A stretch of DNA of 64,000 bases, taken from assembly GCA_041650515.1 (NCBI GenBank), contig JBAZLA010000001.1, forward strand, positions 82,710 to 146,709. Direction: 5' to 3'. Made by a program: the position numbers and the translations under genes. Origin of the DNA: Patescibacteria group bacterium. GTDB taxonomy: Bacteria > Patescibacteriota > Patescibacteriia > JACRDY01. Of this stretch, positions 5,430-63,305 are shown piece after piece. Positions within the stretch are counted from its first letter, which is position 1, and each line of letters opens with the position of its first letter. Below the pieces are notes generated by a model. That model searched no databases and was not told the DNA's origin. It worked only from the letters and a program-made list of their open reading frames with translations.

Positions 5430-5665
5430 GTGACAGGTTTGTGGGACTGTGTCCGGTGATGAAACTTATGTTTGACACTCAAGTTTAGGGAGCCTGTCCT
5501 GAGGAGCCCGCCACAAGCGGACGACGAAGGATTCGACTCTCCCCGGTTCCACACCCTTAAAGAGTCTTTAACCAATTATAAAAACTTTGCTACAATCTAA
5601 ATACCAAGTGTCAAGTTTGGATATATTATTCACAAATCCGCCTGTCTGGCGGATTTGTTTTTTGA
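5430..5665 (+). ncRNA. Candidate small noncoding RNA ending at an intrinsic terminator
   Basis: Non-coding stretch of about 235 nt, with long-range complementarity gtttgtggg...cccgccacaagcgg and a GGATTCGAC motif. It ends at hairpin aaatccgcctgtctggcggattt plus a T-run on the plus strand (5632-5665). Its identity is unknown. Confidence 0.25.
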
Positions 5666-35640: not shown

Positions 35641-35720
35641 CTCCCCTTACCAAGGGGAGGGTTGGGGTGGGGTCGTCCCTCCCCTTACCAAGGGGAGGGC
35701 AGGGTGGGGTTGCCGGGGAA
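35641..35720. repeat. Tandem direct repeat, 2 x 40 bp, each with hairpin ctcccc-ttaccaa-ggggag
   Basis: cctccccttaccaaggggagggttggggtggggtcgtc repeated twice, then the terminator-like ggccgggaaactgatcggcc. Confidence 0.6.
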
Positions 35721-45350: not shown

Positions 45351-45400
45351 TGTTCCACGTGGAACATTCCGTAGGGGCAGGTCGCGACCTGCCCCTACGG
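45351..45400. promoter_or_regulatory. Perfect palindromes: TGTTCCACGTGGAACA (16 bp) + ccgtaggggcaggtcgcgacctgcccctacgg (32 bp)
   Basis: The first palindrome recurs at 47355-47372. Candidate operator/recombination site upstream of the cupin-like pair. Confidence 0.45.
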
Positions 45401-46919: not shown

Positions 46920-47023
46920 CAAAAAGAGCTAAACAGATTAATAATTAAATACTCGGGCATTGTCTCCGCCTTACCACTAGAAATGACCACAAATCTGGCC
47001 TTAAGCTTATCCAACTCGTCTAA

Positions 47024-47095
47024 CGTCCCCGATAGGAATTGAACCTATATCTAGGGCTTAGGAGTCCCTTGTTCTATCCGTTGAACTACGGGGAC
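47024..47095 (-). tRNA. tRNA-Arg (anticodon CCU)
   Basis: Acceptor gtccccg/cggggac. Anticodon loop cUCCUaa with one A:G mismatch at the stem base. T-arm ataggTTCAATTcctat. Confidence 0.75.
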
Positions 47096-47107
47096 ATCAG
47101 GCGAATT

Positions 47108-47151
47108 GGGCTTAGGAGTCCCTTGTTCTATCCGTTGAACTATTGGGGCAT
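47108..47151 (-). pseudogene. tRNA-Arg(CCU) 5'-half duplicate (fragment)
   Basis: Copies acceptor-5', D-arm and anticodon arm of the adjacent gene. Flanked by inverted ggcgaat/attcgcc. Confidence 0.7.
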
Positions 47152-47215
47152 ATTCGCCTCTATGAGGAATGAAATCCTTCGCTCCGCTCAGGACGGAGCC
47201 TACTTATTTTCTTAC

Positions 47216-47264
47216 CGCCCCCATGAGGAATCCCACCCTCACGGGTGGTGGCCCGTTAGGGCCA
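47216..47264 (-). repeat. tRNA-Arg(CCG) 3'-end duplicate (cgcccccatgaggaatc) + double mini-hairpin module
   Basis: 17-nt copy of the tRNA 3' end, followed by ccaccc-tcac-gggtgg and tggccc-gtta-gggcca hairpins. Confidence 0.7.
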
Positions 47265-47278
47265 GAACCTTAAATATC

Positions 47279-47350
47279 CGCCCCCATGAGGAATCGAACC
47301 TCAATTTTGGGATCCGGAATCCCACGTCCTATCCATTAAACGATGAGGGC
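47279..47350 (-). tRNA. tRNA-Arg (anticodon CCG)
   Basis: Acceptor gccctca/tgggggc (one G:U pair). Anticodon loop uUCCGga with G37. T-arm tgaggTTCGATTcctca. Confidence 0.8.
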
Positions 47351-47548
47351 CGAGTTGTTCCACGTGGAACAATTTGTATGGAAAATTCATGAATTGCCAA
47401 TGCACAAACTAAGTTTTTGTTTATAATTAGATTAAATCTAGCGTCGTAAAATTATTTAATCTACTTTTTAAATAATTTTAATCTAATTTTGGCTAAACAA
47501 ATTATTAGTGGTATAATTCTAGCTGATAATTAATAGAAAATCAATTTT

Positions 47549-57789: not shown

Positions 57790-57941
57790 GGGTATATTTT
57801 ACCATTTCGGACCAAATAAAAAAACCGCCTAACTTCTCTAATTTGTCATCCTAAGCCCTTCGGAATGACAATTAAAAATACTTTATCCCTAACAACATTA
57901 AATTTTTCTAAACAAAAAATCACCCTTCAAGGTGGTTTGGA

Positions 57942-57990
57942 GGCCAGGAGGGGATTTGTCTCCCTACGGGAGATCCCCCATAGGGGGACA
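57942..57990 (-). repeat. tRNA-Cys 3'-end duplicate (ggccaggaggggatttg) + double mini-hairpin module
   Basis: 17-nt identity to 58313-58329, followed by tctccc-tac-gggaga and tccccc-ata-ggggga hairpins. Confidence 0.7.
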
Positions 57991-57997
57991 CCCCTGA

Positions 57998-58279
57998 TTA
58001 TCCAACTGAGTGATTACCTATTCTTAATTTAATAATTTCTTTCTGCTGGCTATTGTGTTTCAACTCATATTCTCTTTTAGCAGCTACCAAATTACTAACA
58101 TAAGCCTCATAATAAACAAGAGCTAACGGCCTTTTGTCTTTTGTTGATTTTACTTCACCCTGATTATGTTTTAAAAAACGGGAACTCAAATCAGAAGAAT
58201 AGCCAATATATAACCACCTCGGATCTCTTATACTCTGTAGGGCATAGACATAAAACATGCCATAAGTATAAAAAACCAA
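57998..58279 (-). CDS. GIY-YIG nuclease domain protein (small, about 86-93 aa)
   Basis: FYVYAL...YIGYSSDL..R...H..G. Likely start is MFYVYAL at 58258. Confidence 0.7.
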   Translation of the reverse strand: MVFYTYGMFYVYALQSIRDPRWLYIGYSSDLSSRFLKHNQGEVKSTKDKRPLALVYYEAYVSNLVAAKREYELKHNSQQKEIIKLRIGNHSVG

Positions 58280-58311
58280 AAGTTAAATATTTCTAAACTT
58301 ATCAAACCAAA

Positions 58312-58383
58312 AAGGCCAGGAGGGGATTTGCACCCCTGCATAGAGGTTTTGCAGACCTCTGCCTTACTACTTGGCTACCTGGC
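58312..58383 (-). tRNA. tRNA-Cys (anticodon GCA)
   Basis: Acceptor ggccagg/cctggcc. Anticodon loop cUGCAaa. T-arm aggggTGCAAATcccct. Confidence 0.8.
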
Positions 58384-58413
58384 CGAAAAAGAAAAAAAAA
58401 TTTAAACAATGAT

Positions 58414-58503
58414 CAGGTTTTGTCTCCCTACGGGAGATCCCCCACAGGGGGACAGACCTCTGCCTGGATTTTATCCGCCTTGGGCGGAACTTGGCTACCT
58501 GGC
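58414..58503 (-). pseudogene. Degenerate tRNA-Cys copy with insertions in D-loop and anticodon loop
   Basis: Shares ggccaggtagccaagt...aggcagaggtctg...caaaacct with the intact gene. There is a 30-nt double mini-hairpin inserted after anticodon position 34 and a hairpin ccgcccaaggcgg in the D-loop. The 3' half is missing. Confidence 0.6.
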
Positions 58504-58600
58504 CGAAATTATTAAATCTCACCCTATAATAACAAAACAACTATCAAAAATCAACCTTACTTTTTTATTATTACTCAAACAATATAGAATAATAAACCCA

Positions 58601-58793
58601 ACTGGGGTTTGGGGCGCCCGCCTAGACTCGACGTCTAGTCGAGGCTGGAATACGGCGCGCAGCCGAGCTCCGACCTTTTTTGATTACGCCAAGGAGCGAG
58701 GCGGGTAAAACGAGCTGGGGATGAACAACGAATCGCGCCTGATGAGTCCCAAAGCTTTTTTGTGTTACTTTTTTAGTTATAAAAAAGTAACAA
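58601..58793 (+). repeat. Family-A structured repeat, copy 2
   Basis: ggggtttggggcg...agtcccaaagc-T6 closing stem. Has ttttttgattacgcc and gcgggtaaaacgag blocks, and the terminal palindrome gttactttttta-gtta-taaaaaagtaac. Confidence 0.6.
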
Positions 58794-58902
58794 CCACTAT
58801 TTTTCCAAAAAAAAGAAGCAGGTGGGCTTCTGTCTAGTGTTGTATCCTCCTTGGAAAACACTAGCTAGAAGCTTCCTGCTTTTGGGGGTATATTGCAACC
58901 CC

Positions 58903-59718
58903 TTAGGCGTCATCCTCCTCCCACGGATACCGGTTGTCCGGTTCGGACTCGGGAACGTGTGGCCCCCGCCGTGGCGGTTCCTCGCATTGCTGCTCGGTCC
59001 GCCCGCGACGCCGGCGGCGGCGGATGATCAGCCAAACGACCAGCAACAGCACCGGGATGCCAATCCGCAGCGCCCAGGTCTTGATCGCCAGATTCCGCTG
59101 GTCCGATTTGGCCTTGGCGTGGCTGGCATTGATCATTTCCATCGCCGCTTGGATGTCAGCCGGCGTGGCTTCGACTGCGGCGTCCTCCTTGAGCCGACGG
59201 TTTTCGGCCAGCGCCGTTTCCAGCGCTGCAGCCTGATCAGCCTGCGCCTGAGCGAGCTGGCCAGCCGGGCTGTCGGGCAACGGATCCGCTTGGTCTTCCA
59301 AGCCCCGCGGATACCAGACCGACGCCGAAGCGCCGGAACTGGCACCCATCAGCTTGTAGCGACCAGAAGCGGACACGTTCCAGGTGGATTCACCGGGAGG
59401 CAATTCGGTCTTTTCTCCAGATCCCTGAAGGGCAAAGACCTTGCCCGAATGGACCGACACCGTCAGCTTGGGTGCCCGCAACGGGTCCATCCAGACGGTC
59501 CGCACGACTTCGTTTTTGGGCAAGCTGTACGGCCCGTTCCAGACGGGGTTTGGGGTTTGTGTTGCTGTCTGCTTCGCCGCGGAGTTGGTCTTGAGCGACT
59601 CGAGCTGCTTTTTGGCCAGCTCGATCAGCTTATCCAGACCAATCTTGGCTTCACCGGTCAGACCGCCGGCCGTCCGTTCGAGAAGCTCAATCTCCTCTTC
59701 GGACAGCGGCTGGCCCGC
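58903..59718 (-). CDS. Hypothetical protein with C-terminal transmembrane segment and poly-Arg tract; continuous in frame with the upstream gene across a TAG
   Basis: Open frame from the codon after TAG(59719-59721) to 58903. The post-stop sequence is coiled-coil-like (EEEIELLERTAGGLTGEAKIGLDKLIELAKKQLESL). The ORF track starts at a TTG (59523). GC-rich. Confidence 0.4.
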   Translation of the reverse strand, partial: AGQPLSEEEIELLERTAGGLTGEAKIGLDKLIELAKKQLESLKTNSAAKQTATQTPNPVWNGPYSLPKNEVVRTVWMDPLRAPKLTVSVHSGKVFALQGSGEKTELPPGESTWNVSASGRYKLMGASSGASASVWYPRGLEDQADPLPDSPAGQLAQAQADQAAALETALAENRRLKEDAAVEATPADIQAAMEMINASHAKAKSDQRNLAIKTWALRIGIPVLLLVVWLIIRRRRRRGRTEQQCEEPPRRGPHVPESEPDNRYPWEEDDA

Positions 59719-60414
59719 CTAGATCTTGGTGCGGATTGCCTCGAGCCGGACAATCTTCAGCGCCTGCTCGTAGTCGGCGTACTCCGCCGCGATCTCGGTT
59801 GCCACCGTCTGGGCCGGATTAACTTGATCAGTTGCCCACCAGAACGGGGTGTTGTGGCCACAGACCCGGACCCAAATCCCCGAAGGAAAAAGGCCGAGAA
59901 TCAGGATCACCAGGACCAACCGGACGCCGGACGCCGCGAGGCGTTTGGGCCACATGCCCGTGGGCAGGCCCCACGCACGGCCGATTGCCCAAAGGCAAAG
60001 TAGCACCAGAAACAGACCGACGATAAAGGTGACGCTGAAGTGGAGCGGGGTGAGGGTCAGCCCGATGATGATAATCAACGGGTAGACCAGGATGGTCGCG
60101 AGAGTCAGGGTCACCGCCCCCCAACCGCGCTTGGCGATTCGCGCCGCCAGATCGGCCAGGTAGAGGGAGATGCCTTTGACCTTGTCCTCGGTAAGACCGA
60201 GGAGTGCGCCCAGCTCCTTGACGACCTTGGTCACCTTTTCCTCGAGAAACAGGGCCAAAACACCGCCGACCAACCAGGCGAGTACTTTCTGCTTGCGGGT
60301 CATCGGCTTGTCGTCTTCGATTCCGAGCCAGGCGAGGAGCATGGTGAAAAACTGAACGTACGGATCTTTCGTTTCGCCGAGGGGATCGGCTGTGGGCTTG
60401 ATGTTCTCGGACAT
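59719..60414 (-). CDS. Polytopic membrane protein (231 aa), GC-rich operon
   Basis: GAAGGAGTACTGCC-ATG. About 5 transmembrane segments. Ends at an in-frame TAG. Confidence 0.5.
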   Translation of the reverse strand: MSENIKPTADPLGETKDPYVQFFTMLLAWLGIEDDKPMTRKQKVLAWLVGGVLALFLEEKVTKVVKELGALLGLTEDKVKGISLYLADLAARIAKRGWGAVTLTLATILVYPLIIIIGLTLTPLHFSVTFIVGLFLVLLCLWAIGRAWGLPTGMWPKRLAASGVRLVLVILILGLFPSGIWVRVCGHNTPFWWATDQVNPAQTVATEIAAEYADYEQALKIVRLEAIRTKI

Positions 60415-60456
60415 GGCAGTACTCCTTCGTTCGTTGCTATCGAGTTGATTCGTTGG

Positions 60457-61110
60457 TTACTTCTTCTTGGGCATTAGCGCGGACATCATGGACGACTGCA
60501 AATGATTGGACATGGCCGTCGCGAAACCCCGCAAGGGAGACCGCTTGATCCAGCCGTGGTCCAAACAATACTGCGTTCGTTGCCAATCGTCCTGCCGCTC
60601 CTTGCCCCAACTTCCCATGAGCAGATACAAATACGGCAAGTCGTCGCGACTCTTGGTCGCAGCGACTACCTGCCGGAAATGATCCTGCGCCCAGGTTGGG
60701 AGATGGGTATACCAGTTGTTGAAAGCCTCATCGGCCGCTTTCAGAGCCGCTTCATCAAGTTTAAAGACTTTGACGGTCTCTTTTTTGGTTCTCAGCTGAG
60801 CACCTTCACGCGCCGGCGGAAGCTCTTTGTCCACGATAACGCTTCCCTCCATGAGGGTATGCGCTTTCTTGGCTTCAACCTCCATCGAGGCGGCTTCGTC
60901 TCCGAAACCGAGTCCGCCAACAGTACCAACCGCTTGCGCTTTTCCGGCGCCAGCGATTGTCTGTTTTATGCCGAATAGGCGATCAAGTACGAAGGCGGCA
61001 ATAGCCGCTACCGTGAAATCGCCAGCATCCGGTACAAAATGACGCAGAAAGCTCTGGACACCAGACGCAGGTTCACTTGCCGCCGAAGCGGTTTTCTTGT
61101 CCTCGGACAT
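60457..61110 (-). CDS. Hypothetical protein (217 aa), first gene of GC-rich operon
   Basis: ACGGAGGATACGAAA-ATG. No recognisable motif. Confidence 0.5.
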   Translation of the reverse strand: MSEDKKTASAASEPASGVQSFLRHFVPDAGDFTVAAIAAFVLDRLFGIKQTIAGAGKAQAVGTVGGLGFGDEAASMEVEAKKAHTLMEGSVIVDKELPPAREGAQLRTKKETVKVFKLDEAALKAADEAFNNWYTHLPTWAQDHFRQVVAATKSRDDLPYLYLLMGSWGKERQDDWQRTQYCLDHGWIKRSPLRGFATAMSNHLQSSMMSALMPKKK

Positions 61111-61360
61111 TTTCGTATCCTCCGTTTCTATCCTGTTATAAACTCTGAAACGACCAAAGGACCACCCTCTAGCCGTTATATTCTCACGCTTATATATTTA
61201 GCAGATTAAAAAGTCGTCGAAACGACCCAAAATCCGCCTTTTTCAAGGGACAGTCAGACTCGCTTTAGCCCGAAAGCTAATTTGAGACTAACTTTATATG
61301 ATAGCATATTTAGAGATAAAAGTCAATGATTTAAACCAAAAAATGGCCAAAATTAGCAAA

Positions 61361-61530
61361 AAAACAAAAAAGCATACGCCCCGACATAACATCGGGGCTA
61401 AACAAAAAAGCAAGGTTATCAGCCTTGTTTTCTTGCTTTTTTGTTTTCTTGTTTTATTTTTTAGGCCGAGTGATCCGCCAATTCGGCGAAAAACGAGGCC
61501 GTATGCTTTCTTGTTTTATTGCTTTATTGA
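61361..61530. repeat. Family-D MITE-like element with terminal inverted repeats aaagcatacgcc / ggccgtatgcttt and internal (ttttcttg)n
   Basis: Inverted termini, internal hairpin ccccgacataacatcgggg, and a microsatellite ttgttttcttgcttttttgttttcttg. Confidence 0.65.
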
Positions 61531-61590
61531 CCTAAAAAACCGCCCGACCAGGCGGCCTTTTAATTTTTATTTGATATCTATCACTTACTA

Positions 61591-62010
61591 CTAACCGCTA
61601 CCAGTAATAGTTTTAAACACTAAAGTTAAAATAGCATAGCTAGAAAAAACCACTATAATTCCAATAATCGACCAAACCATAATTTCACGACCTTTTTTGA
61701 CTCGCTCCTCATTGCCACCGGAAAAAATCCAATAAAAACCACCCAGCACAAAAGCCAAAAAGGCTAACGCGCCAATTGGAAAGATCATAAAATAAGCAAC
61801 CTGAGCAGCAAAACCGGTTAGCCGCGCCGCCGTGTCATCACTAGCCGAGTCATTATAACTGCGATAGCCCATAGGATCGCCTAAACAGATCGTTCCATCT
61901 GGTGTGCCTTCTGGACATTTCACCTCATCAGCCGCTAGAACCGCTAAACTATTGAATAATAAAATAGCTAAACAAGCTGAAAATAAGATCAATTTGATTT
62001 TGTTTTGCAT
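61591..62010 (-). CDS. TrbC/VirB2-like pilin family protein (candidate)
   Basis: Signal peptide plus two hydrophobic helices (FAAQVAYFMIFPIGALAFLAFVLGGFYW, MVWSIIGIIVVFSSYAIL), arranged as in conjugative pilin. Size 139 aa. Confidence 0.4.
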   Translation of the reverse strand: MQNKIKLILFSACLAILLFNSLAVLAADEVKCPEGTPDGTICLGDPMGYRSYNDSASDDTAARLTGFAAQVAYFMIFPIGALAFLAFVLGGFYWIFSGGNEERVKKGREIMVWSIIGIIVVFSSYAILTLVFKTITGSG

Positions 62011-62139
62011 ATGGATTTTAAAATGATTCTAATCTAATTATAGGATATTTTAGAAAAAAGGGATAGGGGAGAAGGACATCCATCATCGCAAGCGAGCTCA
62101 CCAGATTTATTATTTTAAAGCTCTGGGGTAATAGATCCA

Positions 62140-62301
62140 ATGGGGGTTTGGGGGTGTTTGCGGCGCCAAGTCCCGCCCCGGCCTTTTTGATCTTTCCCCA
62201 GGGGCGGGACGGGTAGAACGGAATAAAAATGAACAACGCCCGCGCCTCAAACGCCCCCAAAACTTTTTTGATTACTTTTTTAGTTATAAAAAAGTAACAA
62301 C
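62140..62301 (+). repeat. Family-A structured repeat, copy 3
   Basis: gggggtttggggg...cgcccccaaaac-T6. Has ggcgccaagtcccgcccc and gggcgggacgggtagaacgg blocks, and the terminal palindrome gttactttttta-gtta-taaaaaagtaac. Confidence 0.6.
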
Positions 62302-62353
62302 TTTAAAAAACCGCCTCAACGGCGGTTTTAATCTTAATATTTTTTTCTAAGGG

Positions 62354-62911
62354 TTAATAAATCTCCACTCTCAACCGACGAACACCAAACGCTTTAGCCG
62401 CCTCACGGCTCTTCATCCAGACATCAACTCGATAATCATAGCGGGCATTCATCCGGTCTTGGACAGTAAAAACTTGGTCGCCGAAGTAATCCGGCATTTT
62501 GATCTCGGTGCCAAAGGGTAAAAAATTAGCCGCCACCACGTCCTCTTGATCATGGAGACAAACGTTAAAACCATTGGCGGTTCGACACGGATCATCATCA
62601 CACTGATCAACCGTGCTGGAATAAGCCGTGACCGTCACCCAAATCACCCGTTTAGGCTTAGGCGCGGCTTCTGGCAGAGAATTAACGAACTCTTCTGGCT
62701 CAGCCGCTAAGGCGGGAGTAAATAAACTTAGCTCCAAAACCGGGGTATCAGCATCAATCGCACCGGTCTGCCGAAGCGAGTGGGCGAGGCTCACTTGCGG
62801 AAAGGCAAACTCAAAGATAACTATCGCCAAAACCCCAATCTCCAAATGCTTATTTTGAGCTATTTTTAGGTATTTTTTGGCTGTTTTAACAAAACGTCTC
62901 AGGTATTCCAT
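62354..62911 (-). CDS. 3D-domain protein (RlpA/MltA-like double-psi beta-barrel)
   Basis: VTVTAYSS..DQCDDDPC.TANG ... FGT.I..P ... VQDRMNARY...VDVWM motifs. N-terminal transmembrane segment. Confidence 0.55.
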   Translation of the reverse strand: MEYLRRFVKTAKKYLKIAQNKHLEIGVLAIVIFEFAFPQVSLAHSLRQTGAIDADTPVLELSLFTPALAAEPEEFVNSLPEAAPKPKRVIWVTVTAYSSTVDQCDDDPCRTANGFNVCLHDQEDVVAANFLPFGTEIKMPDYFGDQVFTVQDRMNARYDYRVDVWMKSREAAKAFGVRRLRVEIY

Positions 62912-63118
62912 AATTTTATTTAAAAACCCCTAATATACCTTAGGGATTTTCTGATCCGCTATCTTAGCAGAACCAGCCAAAATTGTCAAGGGTAACAAAA
63001 CAACCGCGGCTTTTTCTAGCCACGGCTGCTAATTAGTTTTTGATAATAGTTTTAACCCTTTTTAGGCATCAATTCACCCAACTTTACCTTGATTATCCCT
63101 TAATAACACCCGACTGAC

Positions 63119-63168
63119 TGGAGCGGGTAATGGGAATCTCCCCCTACGGGGGATCACCCGTTAGGGTG
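63119..63168 (-). repeat. tRNA-Gly 3'-end duplicate (tggagcgggtaatgggaatc) + double mini-hairpin module
   Basis: 19/20 identity to 63231-63250, followed by tccccc-tac-ggggga and tcaccc-gtta-gggtga hairpins. Confidence 0.7.
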
Positions 63169-63230
63169 AGAACCCACCTTATCAGTTTACCGGCCCGCAT
63201 CTAAGAACTGGATAATTAGATCAATTTAGC

Positions 63231-63305
63231 TGGAGCGGGTAACGGGAATCGAACCCGTATTTTCAGTTTGGAAAACTGATGCACTAGCCGTTGTGCTATA
63301 CCCGC
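63231..63305 (-). tRNA. tRNA-Gly (anticodon UCC), CCA encoded
   Basis: Acceptor gcgggta/tacccgc. Anticodon loop uUUCCaa. T-arm acgggTTCGATTcccgt. Confidence 0.85.

Follow-up and report, generated by a model that had tools for sequence, protein, structure and literature searches.

The homing endonuclease SegB of phage T4 spreads by break-induced gene conversion, and the mobile endonuclease open reading frames (ORFs) of fungal mitochondria carry a duplicate of the 3' end of the gene that they invade, e.g., in the hybrid atp6 gene of Allomyces. The repetitive extragenic palindromic (REP) sequences and bacterial interspersed mosaic elements (BIME), together with the REP-associated tyrosine transposase (RAYT, or TnpA-REP), combine many dispersed short palindromes with a small nuclease gene flanked by the repeat, and the insertion sequences of the IS200/IS605 type have hairpin ends and insert without target duplication at sites defined by single-stranded DNA. 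Double-hairpin elements (DHEs) are said to be short, G+C-rich sequences of two stem-loops, which are found in many copies between genes as well as in RNA genes and give signs of mobility. In the published accounts, SegB is a free-standing GIY-YIG homing endonuclease encoded in a phage tRNA gene cluster (PMC13096335, PMC2988022), and DHEs are elements of Allomyces mitochondria (Paquin, Laforest and Lang 2000, as cited in PMC3787672). The literature on DHEs that we found concerns organelles only. Here, we analyzed a stretch of 64,000 nt (the window) from a Patescibacteria group bacterium (assembly GCA_041650515.1, contig JBAZLA010000001.1, positions 82,710 to 146,709 of the forward strand), in which partial copies of tRNA genes are interrupted by double hairpins (HPs), in one case beside the gene of a small GIY-YIG nuclease. 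We consider it likely that these units are parts or relics of small selfish cassettes residing in tRNA transcription units of bacteria of the Candidate Phyla Radiation (CPR)/Patescibacteria, which unite a free-standing nuclease cassette with a double-hairpin module resembling miniature inverted-repeat transposable elements (MITEs).

We define an HP as two abutting perfect 6-bp stems with loops of 3-4 nt. A scan of the window for perfect 6-bp hairpins with loops of 3-5 nt, with block shuffles of the window as the null, revealed 149 single hairpins and only four G+C-rich pairs with zero gap, at positions 47233-47264, 57959-57988, 58423-58452, and 63139-63169 (plus-strand coordinates). The shuffled window contained 0.1 abutting pairs on average, and therefore the four observed HPs are real and not due to chance. 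The three remaining rows of the scan are AT-rich or have a 2-nt gap, and two of them represent one site. All four HPs, 30-32 nt in size, lie within fragments of tRNA genes; the window contains seven tRNA genes, all on the minus strand (ARAGORN, Rfam). In the tRNA sense, the HP is inserted midway into the 7-nt loop of a partial tRNA copy, namely, the T-loop in the case of tRNA-Gly, tRNA-Arg(CCG), and tRNA-Cys, and the anticodon loop in the case of a second tRNA-Cys fragment. The T-loop junctions are TTC-HP-GATT for Gly and Arg and TG-HP-CAAAT for Cys, and the T-loop copies bearing an HP are located 5-320 nt downstream of the intact tRNA gene.

An earlier note on this DNA had reported a copy of a tRNA 3' end directly followed by two hairpins at three sites, with stems that differ in sequence and stay self-complementary, and the same hairpin pair in the anticodon loop of a degenerate tRNA-Cys copy. 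The four double hairpins are indeed present at those positions, each with two abutting perfect 6-bp stems, and the 3'-end copies are genuine (Arg(CCG), exact 18 nt; Gly, 20 nt with one mismatch; Cys, 17 nt plus CCA). The differences between the stems compensate each other, both in the window and in 25 related copies, and the HP of the degenerate tRNA-Cys copy lies between positions 34 and 35. As to the order of a 3' end and then hairpins, the adjoining copy is real, but the HP interrupts the loop of a longer partial copy. Since the T-stem 5' strand and the first 2-3 bases of the T-loop precede the hairpins in the tRNA sense, the unit is a T-loop insertion; besides the 3'-end copies, 5'-side tRNA fragments are present too. 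Nor do the HPs look like fragments of ordinary terminators, an option considered in the same note: tRNA sequence with no T run stands directly after the HP, and the real terminators are further downstream.

The tRNA-Cys locus (57913-58554, minus strand) is a cassette in which the nuclease gene is still present. It starts with a promoter-like site at 58526-58554 (TTGATT-17-TATTAT with a TG extension; a consensus match only), and 22 nt separate the end of the -10 hexamer from the first base of a tRNA-Cys 5' fragment. This fragment (58453-58504, minus strand) comprises positions 1-34, its sequence GGCCAGGTAGCCAAGT...GGCAGAGGTCTG matches the intact tRNA-Cys, and its D-loop contains a single-hairpin insertion (58474-58488, TCCGCCcaaGGCGGA, plus 58465-58473, minus strand). 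HP1 (58423-58452; sense TCCCCCtgtGGGGGA TCTCCCgtaGGGAGA) is inserted between anticodon-loop positions 34 and 35 of the fragment and is followed by an 8-nt tRNA continuation comprising positions 35-42 (58415-58422, minus strand; CAAAACCT) and by a 30-nt AT-rich spacer. Next are the intact tRNA-Cys(GCA) gene, without encoded CCA (58313-58384, minus strand; ARAGORN; Rfam 64.8 bits), and the gene of an 86-aa single-domain GIY-YIG nuclease of the UPF0213 type (57998-58258, minus strand). The T-stem 5' strand and the first two T-loop bases of a tRNA-Cys 3' fragment (57989-57997, minus strand; TCAGGGGTG) precede HP2 (57959-57988), which is inserted into the T-loop, differs from HP1 by one loop base, and folds alike on both strands (-9.9 kcal/mol). 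The remainder of the 3' fragment (57938-57958, minus strand; CAAATCCCCTCCTGGCCTCCA) consists of the rest of the T-loop, the T-stem 3' strand, the acceptor 3' strand, the discriminator, and an encoded CCA. An intrinsic terminator (57913-57934, minus strand; CACCTTGAAGGGTG and then a T run) closes the composite unit. In the sense order, the T-loop unit is thus CAGGGGTG, the hairpins TCCCCCtatGGGGGA and TCTCCCgtaGGGAGA, and CAAATCCCCTCCTGGCCTCCA.

In the two other cases, only the T-loop unit is present. The intact tRNA-Gly(TCC) gene (63231-63305, minus strand; ARAGORN; Rfam 73.2 bits) is accompanied by a degenerate 5' portion of a second tRNA-Gly copy (63170-63198, minus strand), in which a GCGGG acceptor, a remnant of the anticodon-arm 3' side, the T-stem 5' strand, and TTC can be recognized. 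The HP in its T-loop (63139-63169; -10.8 and -11.2 kcal/mol on the two strands) is followed by a tRNA-Gly 3' fragment with CCA (63119-63138, minus strand; GATTCCCATTACCCGCTCCA), so that the unit in the sense order is GGTGGGTTC, the hairpins TCACCCtaacGGGTGA and TCCCCCgtaGGGGGA, and GATTCCCATTACCCGCTCCA. The T-stem of the second copy has a T-A pair in the place of the C-G pair of the intact gene; this change is compensatory, which suggests that the copy derives from a distinct functional allele. In the case of tRNA-Arg(CCG) (intact gene at 47279-47350, minus strand; ARAGORN, Rfam), a remnant of the T-stem 5' strand with TTC (47265-47272, minus strand; TAAGGTTC) lies 5 nt past the intact tRNA and is followed by the HP (47233-47264; -13.3 and -13.0 kcal/mol) and by a 3' fragment (47215-47232, minus strand), 18 nt of which are identical to the end of the intact gene. 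The sense order here is AAGGTTC, the hairpins TGGCCCtaacGGGCCA and CCACCCgtgaGGGTGG, and GATTCCTCATGGGGGCGG. There is nothing between the tRNA repeats of Gly and Arg and only the 86-aa GIY-YIG gene between those of Cys; the absence of an integrase from the units, as remarked in the earlier note, is thus confirmed. The Gly and Arg units look like relics that have no ORF. The intact tRNA-Arg(CCT) gene (47023-47096) is preceded, at a distance of 10 nt, by a 44-nt 5' fragment of this tRNA (47107-47150, minus strand), which has no HP and probably remains from a similar event; the acceptor of the fragment is GCCCCAA vs. GTCCCCG in the intact gene, and it is flanked by the inverted repeats GGCGAAT/ATTCGCC. 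A separate hairpin, GCTCCGtcctgaCGGAGC, is located near this fragment, at about 47176-47193. Another HP of the same genome (L001, about position 1617; same contig, about 2 kb past the 3' end of the window; L numbers denote the loci that were fetched) interrupts the D-loop of a tRNA-Pro-like 5' fragment, between GGGGTGTAGCGCAGTT and GGCTAGCGCG.

Copies of the HP from other genomes were searched for in GTDB, one genome per species, with a pattern in which nothing but the T-loop flanks and the CCC/GGG ends of the stems was fixed. The search, a check advised in the earlier note, gave 52 loci, including 23 perfect copies with 12 of 12 complementary stem positions, which are mostly from Patescibacteria, and three copies with 11 of 12; random sequence would be expected to give six Watson-Crick pairs in about 1 of 4,096 matches, and the remaining matches are ordinary chance matches in G+C-rich genomes. 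The good matches come mostly from CPR metagenome-assembled and single amplified genomes, one of the latter with about nine copies, while five of the 26 good loci carry the submitter label Gammaproteobacteria, which we took as given. Base pairs were counted with an explicit parser in 29 copies (those of the window and 25 related ones); a MAFFT alignment misplaced the second loop. Pair 3 of hairpin A is A-T in 17 copies, G-C in eight, C-G in three, and T-A in one, pair 2 of the same hairpin is C-G in 26 and G-C in three, and pair 1 of hairpin B is C-G in 17 and T-A in 11. Two copies with tetraloops (GTAG, GAAG) were mis-parsed and are the source of the few other pairs in hairpin B. The stems therefore covary, as had been proposed for a recurring structured element, and they covary in the Watson-Crick manner, with G-T pairs virtually absent. 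The consensus is TCACCC-TNC-GGGTGA CCACCC-GNA-GGGTGG. On the sense strand, the loops are TNC or TNNC in hairpin A and GNA or GNNA in hairpin B, and thus the HP looks alike on both strands. Both DNA strands of the window HPs fold into the same two hairpins, with energies of -10 to -13 kcal/mol and z-scores of -2.6 to -4.5. Of the T-stem that encloses them, the outer two pairs are mostly disrupted. The strict Watson-Crick symmetry without wobble suggests that the constraint acts at the DNA level rather than at the RNA level. Other folds were rejected. A single long hairpin formed by the 5' arm of A and the 3' arm of B competes energetically once the flanks are included, and its covariation fails at one position in 11 of 29 copies. 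In the case of a hammerhead-like three-way junction, a bulge-helix-bulge intron, and a tmRNA-like minihelix, core motifs are lacking, each hairpin is complete in itself, and the T-stem is not maintained. At the Rfam gathering threshold, only tRNAs were matched in the window, with no match to an intron family or to an HP family.

The product of the window nuclease gene matches PF01541 (E 1.5e-12), with the domain at residues 8-79 of 86 aa, and the structure of the UPF0213 protein BH0048 (PDB 1ZG2, E 4.9e-8). NCBIfam contains no family for it, and in PHROGs it has a marginal match only. Its homologues are 79-94 aa long and 47-71% identical to it, and all those with an informative organism name are from CPR lineages. 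The motifs Y..Y.G..R..HN..YYE..RE.LK are common to the window protein and 19 homologues, and the catalytic motifs Y, Y-G, R, H-N, and E are kept in 20 ORFs. A tblastn search of all fetched loci with this protein gave 36 matches. About 29 of them are located at most 50 nt from an HP, which is usually 8-24 nt upstream of the ATG and in some loci overlaps the stop codon of the nuclease gene; the hairpins are thus physically linked to the adjacent nuclease gene and may be the target site of the nuclease, which the earlier note had put forward as one of its options. Because most mapped loci had been found through the HP, seven loci were also retrieved by nuclease homology alone, and in six of them double hairpins are present in loops of tRNA fragments beside the ORF. 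One of these (L184) shows the order of the window, i.e., tRNA-Cys, ORF, HP, and 3' fragment, and another (L192) is the complete form, in which a cassette with a different tRNA-Cys allele (GACCTGG/CCAGGTC) divides an outer tRNA-Cys (GGCCTAG/CTAGGCC) between positions 34 and 35. In at least ten loci, the GIY-YIG ORF is placed between HPs. Within one cassette, HP1 and HP2 hardly differ (mean edit distance of 1.75, vs. 7.1 between cassettes) and are sister copies. In the inspected loci, we saw no other candidate mobilizing protein near the HPs, and no integrase was found in any locus with inspected flanks, where the cargo of 0-450 bp consists of the small nuclease gene and tRNAs only. Locus L178 (700-1100, minus strand) contains a further GIY-YIG cassette before tRNA-Phe, with the D-loop of the 5' fragment interrupted by another palindrome, CCTGCCTGCCGGCAGGCAGG, which also adjoins the HP in L021. 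This tRNA-Phe is followed by another GIY-YIG ORF, which seems to be disrupted.

The copies of the HP are short, numerous, and non-coding, are conserved in structure, and occur at sites unrelated to one another. The consensus core (TCACCC-N3-4-GGGTGA CCACCC-N3-4-GGGTGG), searched for without any constraint on the flanks, was found in at least 120 stretches of JGI metagenomes, and 107 distinct contexts could be distinguished among the matches listed. Among these, HPs interrupt anticodon loops of tRNA-Glu or tRNA-Asp fragments at 35/36. Other sites are T-loops at 55/56, D-loops, loops of unrelated repeated hairpins (e.g., GTAACGAGGTCTTT-HP-CCTCGTTAC), and AT-rich intergenic positions, often inside tandem arrays of 7-mers. 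Several loops of one fragment can each hold an insert (L062, L182, and the window Cys locus). The HP also interrupts a 5'-end fragment of 16S rRNA (AGAGTTT-HP-GATCCTGGCTCA; L081, 1733-1762; L102, 1061-1090). An ORF of the window nuclease family lies inside a 16S rRNA gene of L068 (16S at 338-2218, ORF match at 1801-1998), and the Rfam match of this 16S rRNA is 1,881 nt long vs. the 1,533-nt model; rRNA genes seem to be exploited by the same elements too. In the search for empty sites, the two flanks of an HP were joined, and the exact junction was sought in all fetched DNA. Filled and empty sites match at zero offset without a target-site duplication, and therefore the HP insertion is precise and does not duplicate the target; 7-nt direct repeats at some AT-rich sites belong to tandem-repeat arrays. 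The suspicion of the earlier note that this may be a mini mobile element is thus supported by the many copies at many kinds of sites, the presence or absence in relatives, and the precision of insertion. In five loci (L058, L097, L136, L147, and L084), the HP stands at a unit boundary of 7-nt tandem arrays (CAGTAAA, CAATATT, GATTTTT, CAAACTT), and these arrays may be either traces of recurrent insertion and excision or merely sites that the HP prefers. A viral origin of the HP was rejected, as its consensus had no match in 2.9 million viral contigs.

Comparison of the loci allowed us to recognize the complete form of the cassette, present in L062/L083/L126, L107, L161, and L162. Its 5' half consists, from the promoter side, of a tRNA 5' fragment up to the loop position p, HP1, a few tRNA bases, and the GIY-YIG ORF, and its 3' half consists of a whole tRNA of the same isotype, a short spacer, a few bases up to p, HP2, a fragment from p+1 to the tRNA end, and a terminator. 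Several observations indicate that the HP-bearing fragments represent the displaced resident gene. In the window Cys locus, L017, L024, L033, and probably L030, the distal 3' copy has CCA and the proximal intact gene lacks it, and the reverse was not seen. A terminator follows the distal copy, and a promoter-like site precedes the 5' fragment and not the inner tRNA. In L162, L178, L176, L192, and L064, compensatory changes in the acceptor or T-stem distinguish the inner tRNA from the outer fragments, and the two therefore represent different functional alleles. Reverse transcription of a mature tRNA was considered as the source of the copies with CCA and rejected: the copies include the T-stem 5' side, and in L012, L037, and L052 their identity continues past the tRNA end into the trailer.

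Three relatives were compared at the tRNA-Cys locus upstream of polA. In L178 (71% PolA identity), there is the same split Cys design with two identical HP variants and no ORF. In L176 (71% PolA identity), an outer tRNA-Cys with the sequence of the window tRNA-Cys is split by a different inner tRNA-Cys and other G+C-rich palindromic inserts, and the ORF is absent as well. In L180 (67% PolA identity), a plain tRNA-Cys with CCA and a terminator was found in the opposite orientation, so that the synteny is not exact. The comparison of relatives, likewise advised in the earlier note, therefore shows that filled, ORF-less, and empty states all exist. Also, only 5 nt separate tRNA-Arg(CCG) from tRNA-Arg(CCT) in L178, where the window has an HP unit and an extra 5' fragment. 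The D-loop hairpin of the window Cys locus (TCCGCC-loop-GGCGGA, 58465-58488) occurs in L176 (about 5621-5637) and L178 (about 5491-5504) too; as both of these relatives have it at a PolA identity of only 71%, the portion of the split locus around it may be either old or a second site-specific palindromic element. The family is heterogeneous in the order of its parts and in the loops that hold the HPs, and other palindromic inserts occupy HP positions in L176, L178, and L188. In L176 (380-1020, minus strand), the T-loop position of tRNA-Gly and tRNA-Pro copies holds quite different G+C-rich inserts, and those of tRNA-Gly form a tandem array of an approximately 105-nt unit and a 20-nt tRNA 3' end. 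Several unrelated insert families use the same target position and duplication design.

The explanation that we favor, a nuclease cassette with a MITE-like HP module, can be outlined as follows. A complete cassette would comprise a gene of a single-domain GIY-YIG protein of 80-94 aa and an adjoining full-length tRNA, bracketed by one or two HPs. It would lie within a divided tRNA gene of that isotype, with a 5' fragment on one side and a 3' fragment on the other, and in these displaced fragments the HP would be inserted precisely and without target duplication at the center of a loop of 7 nt (the D-, anticodon, or T-loop). The tRNA function would survive, as an intact copy is kept or brought in, and the interrupted resident pieces would remain, with the original promoter on the 5' side and CCA and the terminator on the 3' side. 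From the arrangement of these sequences, we infer how nuclease and hairpin may act together. The nuclease would break DNA at tRNA loops or stem-loops, or at extruded hairpins, and homology-directed repair from a filled copy would spread the cassette and the HP, in a manner similar to homing and to REP/RAYT. The conserved T-arm flanks GGTTC/GATTCC would supply homology across tRNA isotypes. Units of the Gly and Arg type, which lack the ORF, would likely result when the 5' fragment recombines with the identical stretch of the inner tRNA and the ORF side is lost, which would leave exactly a tRNA, a spacer, a stub, an HP, and a 3' fragment. The HP inserts would cut the direct tRNA repeats into pieces of at most 20 nt and may thus slow the loss of the cassette. 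It is possible, although we propose it only tentatively, that the GIY-YIG protein and the HP constitute a new prokaryotic mobile system, in which the nuclease would recognize the structure of the extruded 30-bp double hairpin or of tRNA-gene stem-loops instead of a sequence, insert the HP without target duplication, and cause the replacement of resident tRNA alleles by means of a linked 'rescue' tRNA. If so, it would be a natural selfish element of the cleave-and-rescue type in the smallest bacterial genomes.

The main rival of this explanation, which we regard as unlikely, is that the HP is a MITE-like palindrome mobilized in trans, which has no functional tie to the GIY-YIG gene and prefers single-stranded centers of hairpin loops; it would be seen in tRNA fragments because insertions in functional tRNAs are lethal and dead fragments, produced by other events, are tolerant. 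It is favored by the presence of HPs in loops of unrelated hairpins and at AT-rich palindromic sites, by the ability of multiple loops of one fragment to hold inserts, and by the finding that, among the matches listed, 64 of the 107 distinct HP sites (about 60%) lie over 150 nt from any GIY-YIG homologue detected, with no tRNA predicted at a distance of up to 600 nt. The latter finding also weighs against our explanation, as the mobility of HPs could be independent of the nuclease, and so do several other points. The window nuclease has no DNA-binding domain beyond the catalytic one, and most metagenome loci were ascertained through the HP, with the unbiased set amounting to seven loci. Cassettes differ in the order of ORF and tRNA, and the window Cys locus has its HPs in two different loops, so that one model of insertion cannot cover every form. 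Of 15 loci that could be aligned clearly, 10 have a 5' fragment with the very sequence of the inner tRNA; local duplication or homogenization therefore also occurs and fits these cases as well as replacement does. The split tRNA-Cys arrangement is common to relatives with only 71% PolA identity and thus can be old and stable rather than actively mobile. What speaks against an HP independent of the nuclease is the tight recurrent spacing of HP and ORF (8-24 nt before the ATG, or overlap with the stop codon), the occurrence of sister HPs within a cassette, the presence of HPs in nearly all nuclease loci retrieved independently of them, and the lack of another candidate mobilizing protein near the HPs.

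Three further readings fit the data poorly. The HP-bearing copy could be a functional RNA co-transcribed with the tRNA, serving as a processing signal, an exonuclease block, or an insulator against fragment mispairing. Although the units are inside the tRNA transcription unit, between promoter and terminator, the orientation of the HP relative to the tRNA is mostly constant in anticodon and T-loops, and the sense-strand loops of hairpin B (GNA or GNNA) include GNRA, we judge this very unlikely: the covarying stems virtually lack G-U pairs, identical folding of both strands is expected of a DNA palindrome, the outer pairs of the enclosing T-stem are mostly broken, the HP orientation is opposite in D-loops and at many non-tRNA sites, and the units are variably present among relatives and match no Rfam family. 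Still less credible is the view of the duplicates as attL/attR scars of integrase elements or prophages, with the hairpins as recombinase-binding arms. tRNA loops are classical crossover regions for integration, and a duplicated 3' end, with the native CCA and terminator on the distal copy, is what tRNA-integrating elements leave, and the earlier note, which called a duplicated 3' end the hallmark of site-specific integration, considered a footprint of recurrent integration and excision. Such an origin agrees poorly with a cargo of 0-450 bp without an integrase in the inspected flanks, with the lack of matches among the viral contigs, and with the distal copy, whose identity block is broken by an insert of 30-32 nt at the center of the loop where crossover would take place; moreover, 5' fragments upstream of tRNAs are equally common, and compensatory stem changes are not expected of a protein-binding palindrome. 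It is just as improbable that the HP is an eroded group I intron or a mini-intron remnant and the GIY-YIG protein a former intron-encoded homing endonuclease. GIY-YIG enzymes are typical intron homing endonucleases. Position 35/36 is the commonest HP site in tRNA-Glu fragments, and it is also the position of group I introns in the anticodon loops of Patescibacteria tRNAs (PMC13011429). On the other hand, the HP consists of two simple hairpins and only 30-32 nt, no Rfam intron was matched in the window, the ORF is outside the HP, HPs also occur at non-genic sites, and in all cases with a complete context the HP-bearing copies are truncated or mutated and stand beside an intact tRNA without an intron.

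Two observations in the window concern other palindromes. The 16-nt palindrome TGTTCCacgtGGAACA, which looks like an operator site, occurs twice, at 45351-45366 and at 47356-47371, the latter directly upstream of tRNA-Arg(CCG). An identical hairpin pair, TCCCCTtaccaAGGGGA, is present at 35642-35658 and 35680-35696, 38 nt apart.

The elements composed of HP, GIY-YIG gene, and tRNA apparently represent a widespread, undescribed family of small selfish DNA in CPR/Patescibacteria. In the literature on CPR/Patescibacteria, T-loop hairpins, and GIY-YIG proteins with tRNA, we found no description of such an arrangement in bacteria, and the paper on tRNA introns of Patescibacteria (PMC13011429) makes no mention of GIY-YIG, hairpins, pseudogenes, or duplications. 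The genomes of these bacteria are tiny and streamlined, yet their tRNA loci are repeatedly remodeled by a compact element of nuclease and hairpin. If our explanation is true, it accounts for many odd tRNA fragments and pseudo-tRNAs in CPR assemblies, which would improve tRNA annotation, and it offers a route for the horizontal exchange or replacement of tRNA alleles. The widespread and obscure GIY-YIG proteins of the UPF0213 type would gain a concrete, testable role. The strictly Watson-Crick, strand-symmetric HP is also a simple DNA substrate for biochemical tests.

None of the known analogues combines a GIY-YIG protein limited to its domain, a strand-symmetric double hairpin, and the splitting of a tRNA gene with a replacement copy, and each of them shares certain features with the cassettes described here. 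As in the case of partial tRNA direct repeats at attL/attR sites, a partial copy lies beside the intact gene, and the distal copy keeps the native downstream sequence; unlike at those sites, there is no integrase and almost no cargo, the hairpin is at the loop center, and fragments of the 5' side are present too. The dispersed palindromic HPs and the small nuclease gene flanked by them may be likened to the REP/RAYT systems. In contrast to these and to IS200/IS605, the enzyme is of the GIY-YIG type and not an HUH Y1 transposase, the mini-hairpins are perfect and in tandem, and the strongest association is with tRNA genes, whereas classical MITEs differ from HPs in the presence of target-site duplications. 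By analogy with the atp6 type of mitochondrial cassettes, the invader would supply a replacement segment, the host gene would work, and the displaced native end would stay downstream; here, however, the target is a tRNA and not a protein gene, and 5' fragments, complete replacement tRNAs, and fragments marked by hairpins occur. The likeness to the SegB type consists in a small intron-free GIY-YIG gene among or beside tRNA genes, variably present in relatives, but the window protein is a catalytic domain of about 85 aa of the UPF0213 type without a DNA-binding domain, and the cassette splits the tRNA gene, includes tRNA fragments, a replacement tRNA, and double hairpins, and resides in a CPR chromosome and not in a phage. 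Like the DHEs, HPs of the window type are two adjacent G+C-rich stem-loops of variable sequence and conserved structure, and they are mobile. The resemblance is one of structure and behavior. HPs differ in being bacterial, in having their own consensus, in preferring the centers of tRNA loops, and in being coupled to a GIY-YIG gene. If our explanation holds, these cassettes would be the bacterial counterpart of both the mitochondrial DHEs and the endonuclease cassettes that duplicate gene ends.

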